Shown here: piece after piece, positions 23,338 to 48,559 of the stretch | Layout of the letters: every line of letters starts with the position of its first letter | How positions within the stretch are numbered: position 1 is the first letter of the stretch | Virus record (IMG/VR): IMGVR_UViG_3300034072_001093 | Span: 11,062-75,061 of that record | From: a virus | Reading direction: 5' to 3' (one strand) | Length of the DNA stretch: 64,000 nt | The notes under the pieces: generated by a model | Told to the model about the DNA's origin: nothing | Databases searched by the model: none | The model's input: the letters and a program-made list of their open reading frames with translations, nothing else | Position numbers and translations under genes: made by a program

Positions 23338-23473
23338 TCTGGGTTTTTGATGCTTTTTTCGAGATATTTTTCGTGTGTTTTTCGTCTCTTGAAAGCGGTT
23401 GCTGGCAGTTTTTTACAGGGTCTGCCAACCTGATCCCCTCGACGGATTTGCGCCCCGTTGAGAGGGAATGGGG

Positions 23474-28239: not shown

Positions 28240-28267
28240 CACACACTATGTTGACATTTGATAAGAC

Positions 28268-34551: not shown

Positions 34552-36971
34552 TTCTGGGTTTCCTTGGAATTGCTCGCCACTGCCAGCTTGATCATTTCGA
34601 TCAGAGCGGGCCTGGTCGTGGGCGAGTAGGGTTCGGGGGAGTGGAGAATGCCGACGAGCGGGTAGATGTCGAAGACATCCATGAGCTTGTTGCAGGACAT
34701 CCTGATGATGGTGCTCACGAAAGCACTGTCCAGTTTCACCTTCTGGGCAGCGTCCTCGATAGCAGTGCTATCGAAGAACGTTGCCTTGGTCAGAGACCGG
34801 GCAATGCTGATGATGTTCCAGTCCTTTTCGGTGAGGTCCTGGACCACTCCGAGGGTAGACTGGAGCTCGGGAATCCTCTCGACGGCGTTCATGAAAAACA
34901 CGAACACGCGGGGAAGTTTGATGCGGGTGAAATCCCGAGCCAGGTGAGCCCGGATACGAGGGTTGGTCTCATATTCCTTGACGATCAGTTCAATCAGGTG
35001 GGCGTTGAGGCTCTTGGCTCCTTTCTTGATGTAGGCCTCTTCCTGGGTCACGCTGATGGTCAGACCGACCTTGTCAGCGAACATGTCCATGATGGCCTTG
35101 CTCGCGTCTTCGTTGAGGTAGTCGGTCAGCTCAGTGCCTTCCTTGCCCCGCTTGACGGTTAGAACGAACTCCGGTTTCTCAGACCGGGCTTTGACGCTCT
35201 CACTGCATGCGGGATCTTCCGGCATCGAGAAGCTGCGTTTCCAGACGCGGACACCGGACAGAAGGGGCAGGCCCTTCTTGACGTTCCGTTCGGCCCGGAT
35301 GATGGGCGTAACCACATCCGGTTCTTCCCAGGGTTGAACGATCGTCATGTCGAGGACGGTATACCCCAGGCTCTCGAAGGCTTCTCTGACCTTCGGGGTC
35401 TTGGTGTAGGTCCTCGGGACGATGAAGGTGATGACGCCGTGCATGGCAGCATCAATCCCCTCCATTTCAGGGAAGCGCTTGATGCGGTTCCTGATGTCCT
35501 CGGGGGTGAAGCCGATAGCTGCAATCTTGCGACATACAGCAATGCCCTGCTCCTGCCAGAAGTTGTCGTGCAGCCGCAGCTGGTCGAACGAATGCTGACA
35601 GGGCCGGTAGGAGTCACGCAGCCAGATCGACAGACGCTTGATCGGGAGATCCCGGCTCGAAATCGCGTCCTTCACCGGTTGAATGACCTGGCTCATGAAC
35701 CAGTAATTCACTGCCGGAGTGGCGGACGTTTTCAGCTTCCTGTCGATCAGAAGAGCATGGCGGAAGGATTTCAGGAGGTCCTTGTCGCCAATCCCCTGGT
35801 GCTGCAGAACACGAGCACGCAGGAAGAGCTCGTCATCTGCCATGTTGCCGTAAGTGCCGCCGTGAAGCCTGTAGCGAGCGAGACGCTGAACCAGGTGGTC
35901 AGGCTTGAACAGGATCGACCTATTCGGCACCGAGACAGGCATGGGATGCCGGGTATCGAAGACTTGCCACGCCTTCACGGGAGTGTCGAACTCGTTGAAA
36001 AAGCTGCGAAAAGCAACGTTGGCTTTATGCTCAAGATTGGCTTCAGCCTGATCGAGGCATTCCGTGATGAGCTTCTTGATCGTGGCGATCGTCATCGGGG
36101 TGAGAGACAGACTTTCCCGGCTCGGAGTGATGCTGAGGCTGTCAGCCGGAGCCTGGAAAATGATCGAGAGTCTCTCGTTTCGGCCAGCGACCTTATCGAC
36201 GAACTTCGACGCACGGTTGAGCTCGGCCTCATACTCGGCAGACCGAGGAACAGGGTAGATCACGTTGCCCAGGCGGATCTGAATCTTGTTGTTGTAATGG
36301 AGGGGCACCAGAAGGAAGCCCATCTCGGCCTTCGAGAAGGGATAGGTGTTGAGCTGCTTGCCGTTGAGCTCGACCAGCATTTCGCCGTTGCGGACAACCT
36401 CGTGAATGAGACTCTCAAACCGACTGCGGTCCTGGCTGGTCTTCAGGGGTATGTTGACCTCGACGCCGGTCTCTTCCGTGGGGAAGGACGCGATCGGCAA
36501 GATGCTGGGCTTGCCGTTCACCTCGGCCGAGGACTTCGACATGTTGTAGATGGTCCGCTCACCATCATGGTAGCTGGTGACCTGGAAGTGGTCGGTGAAC
36601 GAAAACGGTGCCTTGCAGCCCAGGCCGAAGCCACCGGTCACGAATTTGTTGGCCCGCTTGGTGGAGCCGCCATAGGTGCCGAACAGCGGCTTGATCATGT
36701 TCTTGGCGATGCCGTTGCCGAAGTCGCGGAAGATGACGGCTTCGTTGGTCAGGGTGACCTGCAGGGGCACGTTCTGCTTGCCGGCCTCGATGTGAGCATC
36801 CCACCCATTGCAGAGGGTCTCACGAACGACAGCCAGAGGCTGGTTCGAGTAGAGAGCGCCGGAGAGGACCATCATGAGGGTGGGGTCGGAGTCGTCGAAG
36901 GTGAACTCCATGGCCTCGCCACCGCCGATAACGGCGTGGGTAACGTGGTCTTCGTGATGTGCGACTTTCAT
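34548..36971 (-). CDS. rIIA: rIIA-like protein (GHKL ATPase N-terminus)
   Basis: LYSN..AVVRETLCNGWDAH, RDFGNGI, GGFGLGCKAPF and PSRESL. Confidence 0.88.
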   Translation of the reverse strand: MKVAHHEDHVTHAVIGGGEAMEFTFDDSDPTLMMVLSGALYSNQPLAVVRETLCNGWDAHIEAGKQNVPLQVTLTNEAVIFRDFGNGIAKNMIKPLFGTYGGSTKRANKFVTGGFGLGCKAPFSFTDHFQVTSYHDGERTIYNMSKSSAEVNGKPSILPIASFPTEETGVEVNIPLKTSQDRSRFESLIHEVVRNGEMLVELNGKQLNTYPFSKAEMGFLLVPLHYNNKIQIRLGNVIYPVPRSAEYEAELNRASKFVDKVAGRNERLSIIFQAPADSLSITPSRESLSLTPMTIATIKKLITECLDQAEANLEHKANVAFRSFFNEFDTPVKAWQVFDTRHPMPVSVPNRSILFKPDHLVQRLARYRLHGGTYGNMADDELFLRARVLQHQGIGDKDLLKSFRHALLIDRKLKTSATPAVNYWFMSQVIQPVKDAISSRDLPIKRLSIWLRDSYRPCQHSFDQLRLHDNFWQEQGIAVCRKIAAIGFTPEDIRNRIKRFPEMEGIDAAMHGVITFIVPRTYTKTPKVREAFESLGYTVLDMTIVQPWEEPDVVTPIIRAERNVKKGLPLLSGVRVWKRSFSMPEDPACSESVKARSEKPEFVLTVKRGKEGTELTDYLNEDASKAIMDMFADKVGLTISVTQEEAYIKKGAKSLNAHLIELIVKEYETNPRIRAHLARDFTRIKLPRVFVFFMNAVERIPELQSTLGVVQDLTEKDWNIISIARSLTKATFFDSTAIEDAAQKVKLDSAFVSTIIRMSCNKLMDVFDIYPLVGILHSPEPYSPTTRPALIEMIKLAVASNSKETQK

Positions 36972-37067
36972 GATGGCTTCCTTGGTTCTGGGTTTAGGAC
37001 GCACAGGGCCAGCCCACCCCCGGAGGGGGTTGGCGGCTCCTGTGCTGTCTGGTCTGATGGTTAGGGG

Positions 37068-37514
37068 TTAGACAAAGTGGTCGAGGAAGGGCGGCGAGTA
37101 GGCCGGCCCCTTCGTAATCTTGCCGTTCTCGTCGAAGATGGGATTGCCCTCTTCGTCGAACTTCGACCAGTTGGATCGATCGACCTCATCGAGTGCCTCC
37201 TCGATGTGCAACCCCAGAAAAACCCCCACACCGGTAGCCGTCACGACCTGATCGCAGAGAGAGTCGAGAAACTCCTTGCGGTCATCGGTCATGATCGGAG
37301 TGTCAGAGGTTTTCAGGTGCTTGGCCAGGGCCTCCATGGCTTCCTTGGCCTGCTGGCGCATGACCTCGCCGAAGCCGGATGTCGATCGATAGGCGTCGAG
37401 CATCTCGGCCACCTCTTCGAAGTGGACGCCCATCTGCACACGGATGTGCTTGGGCAGAGGCTCGGGCCTGGCCTTTCGGAACCAGTTGGCGATGCTGGAA
37501 ATGGTGTCGTTCAT
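37068..37514 (-). CDS. MazG-like NTP pyrophosphohydrolase
   Basis: EEVAE, DSLCDQVV, EVDRSNWSK and GKITKG. Confidence 0.8.
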   Translation of the reverse strand: MNDTISSIANWFRKARPEPLPKHIRVQMGVHFEEVAEMLDAYRSTSGFGEVMRQQAKEAMEALAKHLKTSDTPIMTDDRKEFLDSLCDQVVTATGVGVFLGLHIEEALDEVDRSNWSKFDEEGNPIFDENGKITKGPAYSPPFLDHFV

Positions 37515-37529
37515 TTGGTCTGGGTTCTT

Positions 37530-37838
37530 TCAGTTCGGGCGTGCAGCCCGGTATGCGTCGTTGATGAGGCCAGCGATAAAACGCCGAACGTCTCCCCGAA
37601 TGCCGATCTCGTCGGCAACCCAGTTCACCTGGTTCTCGGGCAGCTGCTCGAAGATCTCCTCCATGAATGATCTGCGAGTATCGTTCGGCTTGATGCCCAT
37701 GCGGGTCAGCCGGTGAGAGACGCTGGTGTGGTGCATCCCCAGCTTCCGTGCGATGGAAGCCGCGGAGAACCCCAAAGCGTTCATCCGGAGAATCTCCTCC
37801 TTGGTGTCGTAGAATTGTTCTGTTTTAGAAGCTGGCAT
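37530..37838 (-). CDS. HTH DNA-binding protein (type found upstream of rIIA in N4-like phages)
   Basis: GFSAASIARKLGMHHTSVSHRL HTH, then DTRRSFME. Confidence 0.75.
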   Translation of the reverse strand: MPASKTEQFYDTKEEILRMNALGFSAASIARKLGMHHTSVSHRLTRMGIKPNDTRRSFMEEIFEQLPENQVNWVADEIGIRGDVRRFIAGLINDAYRAARPN

Positions 37839-38225
37839 TGTGCGTGTCCCATTATCTTTATCGTTCGATGCAGACGTGCAGGATCGTCCGGAAAAGGTTC
37901 CGAAGTTGAGACGATCCTGCGGGATCAGCTAATTTTGCTATGCTGGAAAAGCATGGTCAGTGCTTTCTCCTGGCTCAAGCAGACAGCTTCGGGTCGCGCA
38001 CCCCAAGGGCACCACCCGAAGTAACAATCGCCAACCAAATACCCTGAGGGGGAGCGGATACTGGGATTGGTGAGACTGTCACCCTTAGCCCCGGCAGAGG
38101 CCACGTTCTGTCTACTAAATTGATGTTTGGTCTGGGTTTATGAGAAGTTGGTCGCTTCTATCCTATGATAGGGCAAGCCTGAATCTGGTGGCAAGCACTA
38201 TTTAGAGGTATGTCGACATTTCGTC

Positions 38226-38690
38226 TCAAATCTCCAGGAGCTTCCGGTGCTGGATCAGGTAGGAAGTTGCTCTTTCGAGCAAAGCCAGATCGTCTTTGAA
38301 GAAGCCCAGGCCGCGGTTACAGGAGCTGCAAAGCATGCCCCTGAAAGTGTGGGTCTGGTGACAATGATCGATCGAAAGCTCTTTCCACCTACCATCTCCA
38401 GCAGCCCCACAAAGGTCACAAAGACCGTTATGGGCGAGAAGCTGCTGAATAAGCTCTGGGGTCGCTTTGACGCCGATCCGACGAAGACGGTATCTCAGGC
38501 GACCCTCCGGATTGCCGTGATACCTATCGGAGGATTGAGCGTTGAGCTTGTCCTTGTTGGCCTGGCGATAACTCCGCATATACGCCTGATGCTGAGCCAG
38601 CTTATCGGGATCCGCATTACGCTTTGCCCTCGCTCTGGCGCATGCTTCGAGCTTCTTAGCAGAAGTTTTGTTAACCCTGGTCACGGTCAA
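38226..38690 (-). CDS. Endonuclease VII-like HNH (putative free-standing homing endonuclease)
   Basis: CDLC, IDHCH and RGMLCSSCNRGLG.F.D. The start overlaps the thyX stop. Confidence 0.85.
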   Translation of the reverse strand: MTVTRVNKTSAKKLEACARARAKRNADPDKLAQHQAYMRSYRQANKDKLNAQSSDRYHGNPEGRLRYRLRRIGVKATPELIQQLLAHNGLCDLCGAAGDGRWKELSIDHCHQTHTFRGMLCSSCNRGLGFFKDDLALLERATSYLIQHRKLLEI

Positions 38691-39583
38691 ATCTCCAGAG
38701 TTTTGCGAAACTGAATCCAGCCCGTGAAGTTCCCGTGGAGGTCAGATCTTGCCCATTCATAGGTTCCGTCTGGACGAGGGTCTAAAGCCTCATCAGGTGT
38801 TGCCTGATGCTCTGCAGGTGAGGCATGCAGGGGCTTGGAGCCAACGAGGCGATCGAACAGCTTCAGGTCTTCCTCGACGGTGGTCTGGCGGCCGTCATGG
38901 GTCAGGTAGCTGACACGAGCACAGCGAGCGGTGGAGACCTTCTTGAGGATGTCGTTTATCTGGCCAGGCATGGGAACGACACGCATGACGCCGTTCCCGG
39001 TAATCCGGTCCTGGGCTGCCTTGACGTCATCGCGGGTGATGTAAGGCAGATGCCAGTCTTCCGGAGCCAGGTGCTGAGGATGGCTGCTGCACAGAGCGTT
39101 GAGCATTTCCAGAGCCAGGACCTTCATCTCAGGCTGGGCATCGGGGTGAGCACGCAGCTCGAAGAAGTTCTCCCAGTCCGTCGCCGTGACGACGACGTTG
39201 ATGTGTGCCCATGGTTCGAGGATGCGATTGGCAATCTGCTTGTGGAGACCGAGACGAACCATCTCTTCTGCAGCTCTGATGCAGCAATCGAGAGCATCGT
39301 GCCACTCTGCGTTGGCATATGCCAGGTCATCTGCGGTGAGTTCAGCTCCAGCCTGCATCCCAGGCTTATTGCTGCCCCAGAAGACAGGCATGGCAGGATC
39401 CCGGCGAAGATCTTCGATCATTCGTTCGACAGGGATAGCTCGACTGGAGCTTGCGTTCCGCGAAAAGACCCTGTGTGTCATAAACTCCGCATGGATGAAC
39501 CTCGGGTAGCGTAGCTGCATGGTTGTGAGGCGGATTCCAGCAGGTGAGATGCTGTCCGCGATCACTTTGGCATAGATTGTCAT
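38687..39583 (-). CDS. thyX: Flavin-dependent thymidylate synthase
   Basis: RYPRFIHAEFMTHRVFSRNASSSRAIP, HKQIANR, ARCARVSY and HASPAEH. Confidence 0.93.
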   Translation of the reverse strand: MTIYAKVIADSISPAGIRLTTMQLRYPRFIHAEFMTHRVFSRNASSSRAIPVERMIEDLRRDPAMPVFWGSNKPGMQAGAELTADDLAYANAEWHDALDCCIRAAEEMVRLGLHKQIANRILEPWAHINVVVTATDWENFFELRAHPDAQPEMKVLALEMLNALCSSHPQHLAPEDWHLPYITRDDVKAAQDRITGNGVMRVVPMPGQINDILKKVSTARCARVSYLTHDGRQTTVEEDLKLFDRLVGSKPLHASPAEHQATPDEALDPRPDGTYEWARSDLHGNFTGWIQFRKTLEI

Positions 39584-39765
39584 GGGTCTGTGTCTTTCTG
39601 GGTTTGTGAAGTCCGAGACACTCTGGAGAGAGCCTCGGTTGGTCGACTTCAAGGGGGTCAGATGGTGCACTCACGGTTTACAGTGTTAGGGTAAACCTGA
39701 GGAAAGCTGGGGGTTTGCTGGGGATATGGTTTACAAGAAAATCCTTATTTTTCAATGATACGCAA

Positions 39766-39813
39766 GGAATCATAATCCGTAGGTCGGGGGTTCAAGTCCC
39801 TCCTCCGCTACCA
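39766..39813 (+). mobile_element. attP core: 3' part of a tRNA with CAT anticodon (tRNA-Met-like)
   Basis: GGAATCATAATCCGTAGGTCGGGGGTTCAAGTCCCTCCTCCGCTACCA gives an anticodon loop with CAT, a T-arm (GGGGG-TTCAAGT-CCCTC), the 3' acceptor strand and CCA. There is no 5' half. It lies ~60 bp from the integrase stop. Confidence 0.85.
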
Positions 39814-39871
39814 AAAAATCCCGGTAAAACAAAGGTTTAGAGGAGCGGCAAATTTCAGATGAAACCAAAGT

Positions 39872-40921
39872 TTACACGCCTTTGTAAACTTTTCCGCGCT
39901 GGGTCTTCTGGCCCATGCCGCGCATCTTTTGCGCCAAGTGCATGATGACCCGTGCGTTATCGACATATCTGAGCCGTACAGCGGACACTTTCTCCGAACT
40001 CCAACCAAGAATCTTGGCGATGTCATCGTCGTTGAGGCCGTTCTGCACCAGCTTAGTGGCGAAAGTGCCACGAAGGTCGTGAAGAACACGATCGAACCCT
40101 GGCGGAAACGATTTCCGGAGCATGCAAGACAGCCCTTGCTTGGTCCAAGCGAACCCGCGGCTGTTTTTCAGCACGGTTCCGGTCTGCTCTCTGCCCTTCA
40201 ACCATGCCCTGAGTTCAGGGAGCATGGGGATGATGGCCTCTGTTCCTCGCTTCTCGGTGCGTTCGACCCAGACAAAATTCTGGTCGAGGTTCACATTACC
40301 CCACTCAAGCTTGACCAGATCTCCGAGACGGAGACCGGTGAGGCTGGCGAGAACGATGGCGTCCATGACGTGCGTCGGGATCTTGGCATTGTGAATGGCG
40401 TCCCAGTGACGCTCCTCCCAGATCTCGTCGGCCTTGTTGACGCGGTGGAGCTTGGAGATGCCGTCGGCACAGTTGTGGTCGACCATGGCGTTCTCCCTGC
40501 CCCAGTTGAGCAGGGTGCTCATCATGACGACACCCTTGTCGGCCGAGCGGGGTTGGTCCCTCCACTGGTTCCGCCAGCCGTGGACCTTGCCTCGCATCTT
40601 GGCATCGTTGAAGAGCTCAAGGGGCATCTTCCCGAAGTGCTCGTCGATCCGGTTGAGCCAGAGACGGTAGTCCTTTTTGGTGGCCGGCTTCAGCCGACCA
40701 AACTCGGGGCTGTCCTGGTAGGCTGTAATGAGGGCACTCATTCTGACGGTCTTCTCGTCTCGATCTTTGTTCATGGCCGCGAGCTGCTTGGCGAGCAGCT
40801 TTTGGGTGATAACGGGGGGGACGTGATCATCCGTCTGGATGAGTGGTCCCCCCCGCCAGGCATACGAATAGTACCGATCGCCCCATCTGAGGCGTTTGCG
40901 GACAATGTGTATCCCTATCAC
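39872..40921 (-). CDS. int: Tyrosine recombinase / phage integrase
   Basis: Catalytic set R (TGLRLGD), K (TEKRG), HxxR (HDLR), W (LGWS), Y (RYV), plus an arm-binding-type N-terminus YYSYAWRGG. GTG 40921 chosen; ATG 40951 is an alternative. Confidence 0.93.
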   Translation of the reverse strand: MIGIHIVRKRLRWGDRYYSYAWRGGPLIQTDDHVPPVITQKLLAKQLAAMNKDRDEKTVRMSALITAYQDSPEFGRLKPATKKDYRLWLNRIDEHFGKMPLELFNDAKMRGKVHGWRNQWRDQPRSADKGVVMMSTLLNWGRENAMVDHNCADGISKLHRVNKADEIWEERHWDAIHNAKIPTHVMDAIVLASLTGLRLGDLVKLEWGNVNLDQNFVWVERTEKRGTEAIIPMLPELRAWLKGREQTGTVLKNSRGFAWTKQGLSCMLRKSFPPGFDRVLHDLRGTFATKLVQNGLNDDDIAKILGWSSEKVSAVRLRYVDNARVIMHLAQKMRGMGQKTQRGKVYKGV

Positions 40922-40925
40922 GACC

Positions 40926-41135
40926 TTAGTCCTGCGCCGCGAAGTAGGCATCGAATCTGTCCCGTAGCGTGGTCTCCTTGGCTGCCGGGGGCAGCTGCGG
41001 AGATGGTAAGCATGAAACAGTGACTCCATCTTCCCGGATGTCAACGGAGTTGGGCATGAAGCCGTATTCCCGCTTGAGCATGTCGAGGATGGATCGCACC
41101 TCGGTTAGAGGCACGGTACGCCGCTTTGTAGTCAC
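40926..41135 (-). CDS. Putative excisionase / recombination directionality factor
   Basis: 69 aa with a GGAGG RBS, directly upstream of int. Basic helix, beta hairpin (VDIREDGVTV) and acidic-aromatic tail resemble small genes coupled to alphaproteobacterial integrases. Confidence 0.5.
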   Translation of the reverse strand: MTTKRRTVPLTEVRSILDMLKREYGFMPNSVDIREDGVTVSCLPSPQLPPAAKETTLRDRFDAYFAAQD

Positions 41136-41279
41136 GAATCCTCCCTTGGTCCCGTGAAGCTGAGCCTGACCTGCTCAGCCGCACAGAGATGATTCTGTTG
41201 ATGGTCATGGTTTGGCACCGAAGTGCCTGGTCTGGGTTTTTACGGTGCTCTGTAAGGGGGGGCGAGCACTGTGAGAGGG

Positions 41280-41308
41280 CATATCCCGGATGGTTTCCAA
41301 CATGTCAA
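41280..41308 (-). promoter_or_regulatory. sigma70-like promoter upstream of xis-int
   Basis: Perfect TTGACA (41303-41308), N17, then GATATG. Confidence 0.5.
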
Positions 41309-41348
41309 CATAGCCTGAAAAGATAACATCGAGCCCCTTCGGGTAAAC

Positions 41349-41741
41349 TTAACATCGGTTGTTTTTGGGTAAGCCCTCCTGTCCGATATGCTGCTGCATG
41401 TTGCTGCAGGTTCGAGCTATGAGATGGCATTGGTAAACCAGAGGTAACGCATCCCAGACGTCTGATAACCAAATGAAAATGCGCTGTTTTACCGTGACAT
41501 CTTCAAATTGGGTCTTATCTGGGAGTGAAATGCCCGAAGGTGTTTCCACAGGATTATTCGATCCATTTTGGTTGTTGTTTGCCGCCTGCAGGAGGTCATA
41601 AAACTCCTGCAGTGTGGCCTGGAGGCCACTCTTATCGACCGGAATTTCGATCTTGTCGAAGTCCGGATTGATCTTGGCTGCGTCTGCCTGGGTGGTGAGG
41701 ACGTGGATTCGCTGCCCATCGTTTGCGGTGTAGAAGATCAT
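41349..41741 (-). CDS. Hypothetical protein
   Basis: 130-aa ORF coupled to the dCMP deaminase stop. AT-richer 3' half. Confidence 0.6.
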   Translation of the reverse strand: MIFYTANDGQRIHVLTTQADAAKINPDFDKIEIPVDKSGLQATLQEFYDLLQAANNNQNGSNNPVETPSGISLPDKTQFEDVTVKQRIFIWLSDVWDALPLVYQCHLIARTCSNMQQHIGQEGLPKNNRC

Positions 41742-42328
41742 GCCTGGTTCCTCAGCTGGCGAGTTGCCTCGCGTCTGCGTTCGACATTGGCGTTGTTGGC
41801 CTCAAGGAGGCCTCGGACACGCCACTCGAGAAACTGGATTCGATCCTTGAGCTTCTCTTGATTGGGCGGAGGTGAGCCAGGGAGAACCCTGACAGTCACC
41901 CCACCTTCGAACAGGATCTCGGCCGCCTGTCTCATGCTCTCTCCCCATCGGGGATCGTCATGGTCGAATGGATAGACCACCACGCAGCTGATCCCAGCCT
42001 GAACGATGTCGCCTGCACAGTTCGCACAAGGGAACCAGGGAATATACATGGTGCATCCCCTGGTGCTGGCTCCCATGCGTGCTGCATTGAGGATAGCATT
42101 CTCCTCGGCATGCTTGGTGAAGGCGTATTTGGTCGGCCTGGCGTGGCGCGATTCGATTGTGTCATCCACGCCCCTGGGGAAGCCGTTCCAGCCTGAGCTG
42201 ACCTGCTCCTGGTCAGGGCCGACGATGACAGCACCAACCTGCCGGCCACGGTCCTTGGACCATTCGGCATAGTGCAGGGCGAGCGACATCCATCGCTCGT
42301 CCCACATGCGCTGCTTCGAGGCGATCAT
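41738..42328 (-). CDS. dCMP deaminase
   Basis: SKD..QVGAVIV, GWNGFPRG, HAEENA and PCANC zinc motifs. Confidence 0.92.
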   Translation of the reverse strand: MIASKQRMWDERWMSLALHYAEWSKDRGRQVGAVIVGPDQEQVSSGWNGFPRGVDDTIESRHARPTKYAFTKHAEENAILNAARMGASTRGCTMYIPWFPCANCAGDIVQAGISCVVVYPFDHDDPRWGESMRQAAEILFEGGVTVRVLPGSPPPNQEKLKDRIQFLEWRVRGLLEANNANVERRREATRQLRNQA

Positions 42329-42513
42329 GATGCCTCCCCGAAATACAGCTTCCGGCAGGTCTTGCAGGTGACTTTGCCGAAATTTTCCTGGGAGGCGAAA
42401 TAGTAGCTGCCTTCCAGGGGCTGACCACAAAGGGTGGTTGTGGGGTTGACTCGGTTACGGTCGGCGATGTGGCGAGCCTTGCTGTCGTCGAGCAGGGTAT
42501 CGATTGCGGGCAT
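42325..42513 (-). CDS. Small putative zinc-binding protein
   Basis: H..TLCG..VTCKTC. Overlaps the next start codon. Confidence 0.55.
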   Translation of the reverse strand: MPAIDTLLDDSKARHIADRNRVNPTTTLCGQPLEGSYYFASQENFGKVTCKTCRKLYFGEAS

Positions 42514-42515
42514 GG

Positions 42516-43769
42516 TCAGCTCCTGACGTAGATGAGCTTGCCGAAGGGCACGCTCTGTCCCTTCTGGGTGCAGGCCCAGATGATGGGAACATTGACGGGA
42601 AGCGGCTGCATCGGGGCGACATAGAGATCGCTGAAGATGACGGCCGCGGTGGGCTTGTGCTCGACGATGTGAGCATGGACGCAGCGAAGGCAGGTGCCTC
42701 CCCTGCCCACGACCACGATCTTTTCGAAGCGATCGTCCTCGTAGAAGACGTCCTCCTTCTGGATCTGGGTGTCGAACTGGACCAGGGTGAGCTTCTTCGG
42801 GTTGAACTGTTCCTTGATGAATTTCACCTCGGAGTTGAACCGGAGAACCTCCTGGTCGGTGATCGAGCCGGACACATCGAGGTAGTAGATGAGGTGCTCA
42901 AGGCGACCTTCGTCCTCGAATCGGGACGGCAGATACATGTCGTCATGGGCGAATCGGCGGTTGGGCCTGCGCCAGGTGAAGTCCTCATCGACCAGATCGG
43001 TGAAGAAGGCCTTGAGCTCCGCTTCCCAGGGGATGATCGGAGCCAGGAATTTCTCGACAATCTGCTCGATGTTGCCCGGCAAAGTGCCAGGCTTCTGCCC
43101 GGCAAGCTTAGCCTGGTGAATGGCTCGGACCACGTTGTTGACGGCCGCTGTGGCTGTCTCCTTGGACATGGGGATCATGTCGCCGAGCTGATCGGTATCA
43201 TTGGGGTTGGGCTGCCCTGCTGCTCCCTGGTTCCCGACATCGCCGCCTGAACCATTGGGTGTGCAGGGTCCAGGCCCCCAGCTGGGCTTGGGCGGTTTCT
43301 GGTATTGCTGGATGAGGATGTCGTAGATGTCTTCCTCGGCCTGCAGTCCGTATTGCTGGTCCTTCCAGCAGTTTTCGACGCTGGTGAATTTGAATCCGTC
43401 CTGTTCGAGGCCGTTGTTGATCCGGAGATCGCAGGCGAAGTTCCAGATCAGGGGATCCCGGCTTTCACGCCGAACCTGGTGCAGCAGGGCTGCATGCCAG
43501 AGTTCGTGCATGAGGACGGTCTCCCGACCATCAGGGTGGATTTCCATGAACCAGTCGGGGTTCCACCAGAAGGTGACGCCGTCGGTTGCTGCCGTGGGAA
43601 TATCCCGGCTCCAGATGAAGTCCATGGACGACATGATGGAGCCAAGGAAGGCAGCGTTCTGGCCCAGGAAGACCTTGGTCTTGGTCCGATCGAGCTCACG
43701 GGTGATCGTGAACTCGTCGTAACCTAGCTCCTGCACCTGCTTGGGTGCAGCGGGGTGTTGGTTGCTCAT
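42516..43769 (-). CDS. Metallopeptidase-like + VWA domain protein (N4 gp25-like)
   Basis: TAATDG, HELWH, WRRPNRR, MIDAS DVSGS and GRGGT. Confidence 0.88.
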   Translation of the reverse strand: MSNQHPAAPKQVQELGYDEFTITRELDRTKTKVFLGQNAAFLGSIMSSMDFIWSRDIPTAATDGVTFWWNPDWFMEIHPDGRETVLMHELWHAALLHQVRRESRDPLIWNFACDLRINNGLEQDGFKFTSVENCWKDQQYGLQAEEDIYDILIQQYQKPPKPSWGPGPCTPNGSGGDVGNQGAAGQPNPNDTDQLGDMIPMSKETATAAVNNVVRAIHQAKLAGQKPGTLPGNIEQIVEKFLAPIIPWEAELKAFFTDLVDEDFTWRRPNRRFAHDDMYLPSRFEDEGRLEHLIYYLDVSGSITDQEVLRFNSEVKFIKEQFNPKKLTLVQFDTQIQKEDVFYEDDRFEKIVVVGRGGTCLRCVHAHIVEHKPTAAVIFSDLYVAPMQPLPVNVPIIWACTQKGQSVPFGKLIYVRS

Positions 43770-44848: not shown

Positions 44849-46054
44849 TCAGGAGAGTGCGTAATCGGCGGCCAGGATGTCCTGGGCCAGGGTGTCATCG
44901 AGCTTTCCAAGGCTGATGGGTTTGCCCAGCAGCTGGCTGACGATGTTGTCGAGCAGGTTGCTCTTGGCGATCAGGTGCAGCTGCAGGTTGTATTGGCGGC
45001 GCAGGTCGTTGCCGTAGTTGGGGTGGCAGCGGAAGCAGTCGTGGACGGTGACCACCTTGAAGGGCTTCACAGGGAGAGACTGGATCAGGTCTTCGATCAC
45101 CCCTTGGTCAACATGACCGAGGTTGTCGGGGTTGAGGTGATCCATGATCCGAGCGGACAGGTAACCTGTGCTTTGATAATGGTTCCAGAGAACCGCAACG
45201 AGCCGATCATCCACGGTTTTGGTGGCCTTACCGTAGATCTCGTTTTCAGCCATCAGGAGGTCCCAAAGGACCTTGACTTTAACGGGATCATAATCGCACC
45301 GGCGGCCCATCTCACGGACGATCATGCCGTCGATCGAGTGGACGACATTCGCTCCCAGAGCACGGCCGCCTTCGACAGGTGCATTGATTTTGCGGGTGAT
45401 CTCGATCGGCTGATTGAGAACGTGCACAGTCTCCTTGACGGTATCCATGACCGGCGTGCGGACCTGGAAGTTGTCGGGCAGCACCCAGTCGTGGCTCAGG
45501 GTGTCCGGATTCCACATGGCCTGGAATGCCTGGTTGAGTTCCCAGGCACCCGGAGCTGCGTGTGCCATGGTGTTGTAGAAGACGTTCAGGAAGTTACCTT
45601 CACCAAACACCCTCTTAGGCACAGCCGTCGAGCCGTAGAGGGCCGTCATGATGGCCTCCTTGCACATGGCTCGGGAGATCTTCGAGGTGTCGCCGATCTG
45701 GTCCAGCATATACTGGTAGATCCGGGTGTAGGCGTCTTCACGCTGACCGGTGTTGACGACGTTGCAGAGCTCGGCCGCATAGCGATCGCCGATCAGTACA
45801 GCGAGGATCTGCAGGCCTGAGCTGGTGGCATCGAGCGAGATCAGGTGGCCGGTGGGCAGCTGGCGTTCAGTCTCACGCCAAGCCTTGACGGCAGCGTGGT
45901 AGAGGGCCGGATTCTCTGCCTGGTCGAGCAGGCTTTCGAGATCGTTCTCGTTGTTGTCGAACCAGGCCAGGCGAGTGTCCCAGGTCTCCTTGTCGAGACC
46001 GAACTGCGAGGCGACGTCGATTTTGATGTATTCACGAGCGGTGAAGGTTTCCAT
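44849..46054 (-). CDS. RNA polymerase II subunit 2 (N4 gp16-like)
   Basis: LDATSSGLQ, K.AIMTALYGS, ANVVHSIDG and VHDCF. Confidence 0.93.
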   Translation of the reverse strand: METFTAREYIKIDVASQFGLDKETWDTRLAWFDNNENDLESLLDQAENPALYHAAVKAWRETERQLPTGHLISLDATSSGLQILAVLIGDRYAAELCNVVNTGQREDAYTRIYQYMLDQIGDTSKISRAMCKEAIMTALYGSTAVPKRVFGEGNFLNVFYNTMAHAAPGAWELNQAFQAMWNPDTLSHDWVLPDNFQVRTPVMDTVKETVHVLNQPIEITRKINAPVEGGRALGANVVHSIDGMIVREMGRRCDYDPVKVKVLWDLLMAENEIYGKATKTVDDRLVAVLWNHYQSTGYLSARIMDHLNPDNLGHVDQGVIEDLIQSLPVKPFKVVTVHDCFRCHPNYGNDLRRQYNLQLHLIAKSNLLDNIVSQLLGKPISLGKLDDTLAQDILAADYALS

Positions 46055-47520: not shown

Positions 47521-47681
47521 GTGAGATGCCCCTTGTCGGTTGTTTTCTTGATCAGACCCCAAAGAGTGTATTCTTCGTCCTCAGTGAGATCCCAATTTTC
47601 AGCCCCCATTTCCCTCTGCACCTCATCAGTGTGGATGAGGCGGATGAGTGCTTTGACTTCTTCTTTGGTCAGTTCGATCAC
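47517..47681 (-). CDS. Hypothetical protein
   Basis: GTG overlaps the RNAP1 stop. AAGGAG RBS. Confidence 0.5.
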   Translation of the reverse strand: MIELTKEEVKALIRLIHTDEVQREMGAENWDLTEDEEYTLWGLIKKTTDKGHLT

Positions 47682-48559
47682 ACAAGATGCTCCTTGTCGG
47701 CAAGCTGGACGACTGCCTTGTTCCACTCGGTCCCCTGGTAGTTGACATGGTAGCCCATGCAGTAGGTCCGGCCCCGCTTGTCGTAGCGGTGGGTGACGTG
47801 GTGGACGTTGGCGATCGAGGTCAGCTGGGCCATGACGTCCCGAGCTGCCTGGTCGTATTTCTGGAAGGCACGCTGGCGTTTCTCGAAGTCCTTCTTCGTC
47901 TCGCCCTCCTTCTGCCGATCGAGGTCTGACCAGCTGTTCTGAACCATCTCCGCGGTCTCCATTTTGATGGCGAAGCGGATGGCGTTCATGCGGTTGATGT
48001 GGTCGAGGCAGAGGTCATCCTCTCCCGGATTCTGGTTCAGCATGACCGAGCCAGAACTCATGAAATAGCCGGTCTCGTTGTTCCGCAAGACAGGCCTGGG
48101 AGGCACGACCATAGGCAGAGGGAACTGGTAGCGGTTGAGCTCCTCCTGAACGTCATCGCTGACCTCGAAGATCACGATGAACTGCCCCAGATTGGGGTTA
48201 TAGTCGAACAGGTCGACGGCCACACAAAGCATGAGCATGTCAGCCGTGGCCTGGGCATCGTTGAGGTGCCGGTACATGACGCCGACCATGGTCTTGACGT
48301 CAGCGCGCTTGTGGAGAGCGATTTGGACCATGGCATCGAAGCCGAAGGTCACAGGGATGCCGGCCTCTTCCATCACCCGCACGAAGGGGATGTCGGACTC
48401 GATGAACTCCTTCTTGATCCTGGGGATCAGCTGGTTCTTGTTGAAGAGGATCTCGAGCTGCACCTGGAGAGCATGCAGCTGCTTATCAGTCGTACCGTTT
48501 CCGATAGACGTAGGGTTGCCATCGTTGATGGGGTCGTTGGAAGCGAGAGCGTTGGTCAT
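47678..48559 (-). CDS. RNA polymerase II subunit 1 (N4 gp15-like)
   Basis: QFPLPMVVPP and HRYDKRGRTYCMGYHVNYQG. Confidence 0.93.
   Translation of the reverse strand: MTNALASNDPINDGNPTSIGNGTTDKQLHALQVQLEILFNKNQLIPRIKKEFIESDIPFVRVMEEAGIPVTFGFDAMVQIALHKRADVKTMVGVMYRHLNDAQATADMLMLCVAVDLFDYNPNLGQFIVIFEVSDDVQEELNRYQFPLPMVVPPRPVLRNNETGYFMSSGSVMLNQNPGEDDLCLDHINRMNAIRFAIKMETAEMVQNSWSDLDRQKEGETKKDFEKRQRAFQKYDQAARDVMAQLTSIANVHHVTHRYDKRGRTYCMGYHVNYQGTEWNKAVVQLADKEHLV

Follow-up and report, generated by a model that had tools for sequence, protein, structure and literature searches.

A probable lambda-style integration module directed at tRNA-Met(CAT) in an N4-like phage

Enterobacteria phage N4 has a genome of about 75 kb that encodes a giant virion RNA polymerase (vRNAP), a two-subunit RNA polymerase (RNAPII), rIIA and rIIB, an AAA protein, and a vWA protein. 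N4 is the lytic archetype of the Schitoviridae and is not known to have an integrase or a phage attachment site (attP). The usual view of N4-like phages is that they are strictly lytic, and their applications, for example in therapy cocktails, rely on this. Here, we analyze a stretch of 64,000 nucleotides (the window) from a virus in IMG/VR, record IMGVR_UViG_3300034072_001093. This virus shares all of the above features with N4, and it also has a gene for a tyrosine integrase (int) beside the 3' part of a tRNA gene (Table 1). An earlier note on this DNA, made from the sequence alone, had proposed that int, the tRNA part, a small upstream gene, and a host-type promoter form an apparently complete lysogeny module.

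Temperate N4-like phages as such are already in the literature. Zheng et al. (2023, mSystems 8:e00197-23, PMC10654107) report 54 N4-like genomes or proviruses with lysogeny hallmark genes, as well as 40 integrated N4-like proviral regions, mostly from Moraxella, and they conclude that some N4-like viruses are lysogenic. As in the window, vRNAP and RNAPII occur alongside a tyrosine integrase in an IMG/VR genome that they describe, and the inference of lysogeny is the same. However, their proviruses are mainly from Moraxella, and the passages on these viruses describe no attachment (att) sites, arm repeats, or partner gene for the integrase. Thus, of the novelty that the earlier note saw in a temperate N4-like phage, the lineage remains: relative to those passages, what is new here is a sphingomonad-associated lineage that targets tRNA-Met(CAT), a well-resolved attP (core, arm repeats, partner gene, and conserved leader), and a switch of the core between tRNA-Met and tRNA-Arg among relatives within the sublineage.

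The other close systems are phage lambda and a group of sphingomonad elements. The Int of lambda is a heterobivalent tyrosine integrase that has arm-type as well as core-type sites, and Xis is its directionality factor. Lambda Int (1z1b) is the best solved relative of the window's integrase (E = 5.7e-9), and the catalytic residues align. Also, in both systems, a short motif is repeated on both sides of the core, and a small gene lies directly upstream of int and overlaps it. Unlike in lambda, where the core is intergenic, the core in the window is the 3' part of a tRNA; the small protein in the window, of 69 amino acids, is unlike any Xis in sequence or fold; and we did not find a CI/Cro switch. 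The sphingomonad elements are prophages and islands of about 9.4 kb (L019, L021, L201, L203, L205, L206, and L216). Their integrases belong to the same family (43 to 51% identity), they have the same partner gene (65 to 70 amino acids), and positions 32 to 77 of tRNA-Met are duplicated at their ends, but they lack N4-like genes. Some of these elements have a core in the same orientation as int, which places int at the opposite end of the prophage.

We think it likely that the window contains a functional, lambda-style module for site-specific integration, in a complete N4-like phage of a sphingomonad host. That the phage is a complete N4-like (Schitoviridae-type) phage is indicated by its gene content. 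The window is bases 11062 to 75061 of a 75,061-bp record, which CheckV considers to be 100% complete. Besides vRNAP, PHROG matches identify rIIA and rIIB, the AAA and vWA proteins, DNA polymerase, primase, and both subunits of RNAPII. The giant vRNAP gene, a two-subunit RNAPII, and a genome of about 70 to 75 kb are features of N4-like phages (Schitoviridae), and this phage has all three. The record's "direct terminal repeat" is an exact 127-bp overlap of the two ends, which is the signature of an assembler closing a circle; the assembly is therefore circular, and the physical ends of the genome are not readable from the record. This circular assembly, the single att copy, and the phage genes on both sides of the cassette agree with the earlier note's suggestion that this is the excised (attP) form.

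The integrase matches PF00589 with 61.3 bits (E = 1.3e-16), compared to a curated cutoff of 27.1, and it matches phrog_1 ("integrase") with E = 3.2e-33. R202, K228, H285, R288, W311, and Y323 are invariant across 20 homologs (the numbering follows the open reading frame at 39872 to 40933). The first five of these align with R212, K235, H308, R311, and H333 of lambda Int; Y323 is just beyond the aligned stretch, within an invariant R-Y-V motif. Hence, the integrase does have the full set of catalytic residues that the earlier note had ascribed to it. More than 1,500 relatives of the integrase were found, and the named ones are from Novosphingobium, Croceicoccus, and Erythrobacter, with about 50% identity. 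In IMG/VR, most of the relatives have a terminal position in ordinary proviruses, which are about 40 kb long and lack vRNAP. Among cultured phages (the GenBank collection), no integrase is over 34% identical to the window's, and no such match is from a phage of N4-like size. A search with the integrase alone found no relative in genome_contigs.

The proposed core of attP is convergent with int and its end is 58 bp from the int stop codon. All 48 of its nucleotides are identical to positions 30 to 77 of a 77-nucleotide tRNA-Met(CAT) gene, and it is present once in the 75-kb genome. (ARAGORN and Rfam did not call a tRNA at the core, as expected for half of a tRNA.) A full tRNA-Met that matches the core was found first in a viral contig (L002) and then in 38 stretches from genome_contigs, 36 of which hold the entire 77-nucleotide gene at 98.7 to 100% identity. 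The genomes that match are mostly Sphingomonadales (Blastomonas, Sphingorhabdus, and Sphingopyxis), with scattered other Alphaproteobacteria. The comparison to bacterial tRNAs, with its 38 exact genome contigs, thus bears out the earlier note, which had described these 48 bp as the 3' half of a CAT-anticodon tRNA ending in CCA and had named an alphaproteobacterial tRNA-Met as the target; elements of the same integrase family also sit in this gene. Because its anticodon stem lacks the three G:C pairs of the initiator tRNA, the tRNA is an elongator tRNA-Met or, possibly, tRNA-Ile2; these two are not distinguishable by the anticodon alone. The alphaproteobacterial tRNA-Met also has exact matches in two betaproteobacterial assemblies, one labeled as Acidovorax delafieldii CCH4-A2 (L086 / G036) and the other a metagenome-assembled genome of Hydrogenophaga intermedia (L075). 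G036 also contains a CTP (cytidine triphosphate) synthase that is 80% identical to the sphingomonad CTP synthase of L211, a contig that is described below. These two assemblies are probably mixed or contaminated.

Relatives of the integrase show what such a core is used for. Several circularly assembled phages carry a fragment of tRNA-Met, from position 29 to 32 through position 77, beside int, and in two proviruses, a complete tRNA-Met is convergent with int. In the five metagenome loci among the sphingomonad elements (all but L019 and L021), a full tRNA-Met and a 46-nucleotide repeat of positions 32 to 77 are about 9.4 kb apart, with int inside; from their sequence and arrangement, each such pair is an attL/attR pair. 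Given these tRNA fragments and attL/attR-like pairs, this integrase family demonstrably integrates into this tRNA-Met gene, as judged from comparing loci, with a crossover predicted somewhere from the anticodon loop to the 3' end. All of the elements of about 9.4 kb share the integrase and its partner gene. Their size is below that of ordinary phages, and they may represent islands or satellites.

On both sides of the core, the window contains copies of GTTTAC or its complement (GTAAAC). This hexamer is rare, with 17 copies in the window (5.09 expected), and 5 of the 17 lie in a 214-bp stretch that surrounds the core. Two other N4-like contigs, L189 and L007, retain the GTAAAC motifs in their attP regions, even with a different tRNA core in L007. 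The inverted pair 3' of the int stop codon is also present in L189, L007, and L211. As for a lambda-like integrase, the five hexamers are candidates for arm-type sites that are bound by Int.

The same cassette is found in other N4-like contigs. Together, L189 and L198, which are probably from one phage, contain a deoxycytidine monophosphate (dCMP) deaminase, orf130, the 69-amino-acid gene, int, the tRNA-Met fragment, thyX, a helix-turn-helix (HTH) gene, MazG, and rIIA, with 60 to 86% amino acid identity to the window. L007 (IMGVR_UViG_3300016664_000056) has int, the 3' part of a tRNA-Arg(ACG), thyX, the HTH gene, MazG, and a DNA polymerase that is 66% identical. The tRNA-Arg part (L007:1131-1175) is antisense to int and lies between int and thyX. 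By this comparison, the site in L007 is retargeted to tRNA-Arg(ACG), with the GTAAAC arm motifs retained. The phage side of L211 (metagenome contig VFQO010001579.1) encodes an N4-like RNAP2, AAA and vWA proteins (60% identity each), a 72-amino-acid homolog of the partner protein, and an integrase (43% identity). After int comes a complete tRNA-Arg(CCT), which is convergent with int, and then DUF1178, a CN-hydrolase, PyrG (CTP synthase), and TpiA (triosephosphate isomerase); the PyrG is 85% identical to that of Sphingorhabdus buctiana. Its gene order makes L211 look exactly like the junction that an integrated phage would be expected to form with the chromosome of a sphingomonad. The shared locus and this junction between N4-like genes, int, tRNA, and chromosome lend support to the earlier note's proposal of a temperate capacity. 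The arm sequence of L211 had 0 matches in viral_contigs, and a search with the vWA protein alone found no relative there. L211 also has an RNAPII large-subunit gene (L211:388-2477) that is split into parts of 142 and 270 amino acids by an open reading frame of 198 amino acids that resembles HNH-type endonucleases.

In a tree of 126 integrases, all eight that were labeled as N4-like fall within one clade of 16 (Shimodaira-Hasegawa-like approximate likelihood ratio test, 95). Five of these eight are on contigs with N4-like genes; for the other three (P0006, P0002, and P0087), the link to N4-like phages is circumstantial. The remaining eight rows of the clade are from contigs whose context was not read or that are otherwise dissimilar to the phage. 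In trees of MazG and of a 467-amino-acid replication protein, the int-bearing phages are grouped, with modest support (90 and 89, respectively). A single acquisition of int, followed by retargeting, fits these trees, which do not prove it.

The 69-amino-acid gene, which the earlier note had placed directly upstream of int, overlaps the start of int by 26 nucleotides. Homologs of the protein are encoded directly upstream of int in over 40 loci from phages, prophages, and metagenomes; given this fixed place, it is a real gene and a constant partner of this integrase. The ATG at 41208 was considered as an alternate start codon and was rejected: a 1-nucleotide indel in L198 shifts its frame, and the GTG and its ribosome-binding site are conserved. 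The protein does not belong to any family in Pfam or PHROG. An AlphaFold2 model (built from 23 sequences; predicted local distance difference test score of 70) has a helix, a beta-hairpin, and another helix, and a Foldseek search with this model found nothing in the PDB at E <= 0.001. The position of the gene makes the protein a candidate for an excisionase or directionality factor. The earlier note's description of it as Xis-like therefore holds for position, adjacent to and overlapping int, but not for sequence family or fold.

The leader of the 69-amino-acid gene and int is more similar between the window and L198 (96% identity) than the coding regions of L198 are (67 to 86% at the protein level). 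The TTGACA hexamer in the leader is identical in L198 and has a counterpart in L211, where GTTTAC, TTGACA, and AACCCAGA precede the 72-amino-acid gene in the same order. The promoter proposed by the earlier note is therefore present and kept as a -35 hexamer, but its -10 element (GATATG) is weak, and a sigma-70 scan made no call at this site, which is weak by the E. coli consensus. The alphaproteobacterial promoter consensus is CTTGAC-N17-CTATAT, and the gTTGAC-N17-GGATAT of the window presumably fits this better than it fits the E. coli consensus.

Some elements of the leader recur elsewhere in the genome. Near-palindromic boxes are present in three intergenic regions: ATGTTGACAT at 41302-41311 and, exactly, at 28248-28257, and ATGTCGACAT at 38210-38219. 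A TTGAC-type -35 element and a GTTTAC are found close to each of these boxes, which could represent an operator or an element that several promoters have in common. The window also has 22 copies of the octamer AACCCAGA (TCTGGGTT on the + strand), versus 2.09 expected, including at 23338, 34553, 37519, 39597, 41231, 44826, and 51571. Most of the copies are 0 to 25 nucleotides before the start codons of minus-strand genes, often with no visible Shine-Dalgarno sequence, and AACCCAGA is also in the leaders of L189 and L211; it may be a signal for translation initiation or a leader signal. That the cassette has promoter and leader elements in common with other phage operons argues for a long residence in this lineage.

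Table 1. Features of the integration cassette and N4-like hallmark genes (positions within the window; aa, amino acids)
Feature	Position	Strand	Details
Virion RNA polymerase (vRNAP), 3581 aa	9982-20727	+	phrog_2206 "virion RNA polymerase", E = 0, 2419 bits, full length
attP arm, thyX side	39676-39765	.	GTTTAC/GTAAAC at 39676-39681 (+), 39691-39696 (-), 39729-39734 (+)
attP core, 48 bp, 3' part of tRNA-Met(CAT), anticodon stem/loop through CCA	39766-39813	+	exact match
attP arm, int side	39814-39890	.	inverted GTTTAC...GTAAAC at 39870-39875 (+) and 39884-39889 (-), overlapping the int stop codon
Lambda-type tyrosine integrase (int), 359 aa from ATG at 40951	39872-40951	-	PF00589, phrog_1
69-aa partner gene of int	40926-41135	-	GTG start behind AAGGGAGG ribosome-binding site
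Leader/promoter region of 69-aa gene and int, 213 bp	41136-41348	-	96% identical in L198
Hairpin GGCAC-CGAA-GTGCC (as + strand)	41214-41227		in leader
AACCCAGA in leader	41231-41238		
TTGACA	41303-41308	-	inside ATGTTGACAT box; weak -10 GATATG
Further GTTTAC in leader	41343-41348		
orf130, 130 aa	41349-41741	-	directly upstream of cassette; function unassigned
RNAPII subunit	44849-46054		phrog_2051
RNAPII subunit	47678-48559		phrog_2166

If the module works as we propose, the genome would circularize first. The phage encodes a Sak4-like annealase, a RuvC-like resolvase, a DprA-like protein, and a single-stranded DNA-binding protein, and these could circularize a terminally repeated genome. The N-terminal part of Int would bind the GTTTAC arms, and its core-binding and catalytic domains would bind the tRNA-derived core. 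Int would then recombine attP with the host's tRNA-Met(CAT) gene, and the strands would cross over within or close to the anticodon loop. The phage's 48 bp would substitute for the 3' part of the host gene, which would leave the tRNA intact. The prophage would have int beside the rebuilt tRNA at one end and thyX at the other. The 69-amino-acid protein would most likely act with Int, as a directionality factor or a regulator. We infer both the recombination by this phage and the role of the 69-amino-acid protein.

As the earlier note pointed out, and we consider the inference to be sound, the dependence on vRNAP makes lysogeny mechanistically puzzling. It might be that no dedicated repressor is needed: because vRNAP arrives in the virion, a prophage would be silent by default, and TTGAC-type promoters would let the host's polymerase restart the cascade. 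TTGAC-type, host-like promoters next to ATGT-NN-ACAT boxes are indeed present in the int operon as well as in two or more further operons on the minus strand. Still, we regard this explanation of silencing and restart as rather unlikely.

Several results weigh against a functional integration module. Searches of viral_contigs, genome_contigs, and metagenome_contigs yielded neither a lysogen of this phage nor its attL/attR. The exact pattern of the core's 3' end joined to the int-side flank had 0 matches in metagenome_contigs, and tblastn of all of the phage's open reading frames against the 38 host tRNA loci found no phage genes. Searching for RNAP2 in 401 Sphingomonadaceae genomes gave nothing credible (one weak match resembles a T7-type polymerase); phrog_2206 was not found in 120 Sphingorhabdus genomes, with a positive control on the phage's own genome; and AAA was not found in 136 Sphingopyxis genomes. 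Across these roughly 650 sampled sphingomonad genomes, then, there was no N4-like hallmark gene, and the vRNAP-containing prophages that the earlier note had suggested looking for did not turn up. None of the 120 closest homologs of the N4-like AAA protein is on a contig longer than 77.7 kb. No CI/Cro/XRE-type repressor was identified among the 52 small open reading frames (Pfam, E <= 1e-3), and there was no repressor among the 25 listed of 38 matched PHROG families (E <= 1e-5). The sole HTH-like protein (37530-37838; phrog_6377) is also present in relatives that lack the integrase. With no recognizable repressor, the lysogeny module cannot be called complete, as the earlier note had it. In addition, a PF00589 gene is entirely missing from seven near-complete syntenic N4-like relatives, so the integrase trait is patchy; the 69-amino-acid protein fits no excisionase family or fold in Pfam, PHROG, or the PDB; and the L211 junction is a single metagenome contig, for which a mis-join via the roughly 45 bp that are common to attP and the host tRNA is conceivable. 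On the other hand, one observation is neutral with respect to lysogens: the contig ends that stop at 39766 are 5' halves of tRNA-Met genes from other bacteria, and no listed Logan contig links a tRNA-Met 5' half to the int side in those samples.

These negative results raise the question of whether the cassette is a passenger from a sphingomonad prophage, temporarily kept by a strictly lytic phage and with no role in its life cycle. A passenger would account for the missing repressor, for the lack of lysogens or N4-like prophages in the sphingomonad genomes, and for the lack of an integrase in most of the syntenic N4-like relatives, and the nearest integrases outside the N4-associated clade are indeed from ordinary prophages of about 40 kb. 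But N4-like phages with no more than 47 to 67% identity in their core genes have the cassette at one and the same locus, with its catalytic residues, arm sites, and partner gene all kept and with a leader that is 96% conserved. Furthermore, the core has switched among tRNA-Met and two tRNA-Arg genes with a constant arm motif, which implies selection on function, and L211 has the integrated junction. We therefore view a passenger as improbable. It is also conceivable that the recombinase serves multimer resolution, circularization, or a transient carrier state instead of stable lysogeny. N4-like pseudolysogeny is described in passages of PMC10654107, and N4-like genomes of 76 to 78 kb are present as separate contigs in isolate assemblies: the contigs that encode the N4-like AAA proteins P0176 and P0239, from Paraburkholderia sp. 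SIMBA_049 and SIMBA_054, have lengths of 76,468 and 77,653 bp. Entire N4-like genomes seem to accompany isolate assemblies as molecules of their own, as would be the case in a carrier state or in pseudolysogeny. However, a site for multimer resolution need not match a host tRNA, a site that exactly copies the 3' part of a host tRNA gene is the hallmark of integration into the chromosome, and related integrases lie between attL and attR in tRNA-Met, so we consider such a purpose to be very unlikely.

The earlier note had also raised the possibility that the int island is chimeric, that is, an assembly artifact that joins an N4-like phage to an unrelated prophage. A tRNA-like core is repeated in metagenomes, and the contigs from run X3 do break inside the core. 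Nevertheless, in a check based on Logan contigs instead of raw reads, an 8,002-bp contig from run X1 covers 35121-43122 with zero differences, and the depth across the int island is even (13 to 14 in X1 and 40 to 50 in X3, which are two runs of what is probably the source study). An independent sludge study (X5) contains the core with the thyX-side arm as well as the region of int and the 69-amino-acid gene, with few differences, and three other contigs have the same junctions to N4-like genes. A chimera now seems extremely unlikely, and we dropped this explanation. We continue to favor a functional integration module.

Several nearby features are also worth describing. As judged from its distribution, orf130, which is directly upstream of the cassette, is at most a tentative part of the module: it is 85% identical in L198 and absent from L211, it has no match in Pfam, PHROG, or the ESM Atlas, and a relative was seen only in L198. 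Between the HTH gene and thyX is an endonuclease VII gene (PF02945; 38226-38690) that the syntenic relatives lack. For the related phages in X5 and X6, there is little depth over 38226-38690, and this gene probably encodes a mobile homing endonuclease. Run X6 ("organism A") has the N4-like flanks at about 90 to 95% identity, with little depth over int.

Overall, if a sublineage of N4-like phages maintains an integration module, as we think likely, then the assumption that these phages are strictly lytic needs to be checked genome by genome. The parts of the cassette are defined and can be cloned, and they could be used to ask how a cascade that begins with an injected polymerase is silenced and restarted.

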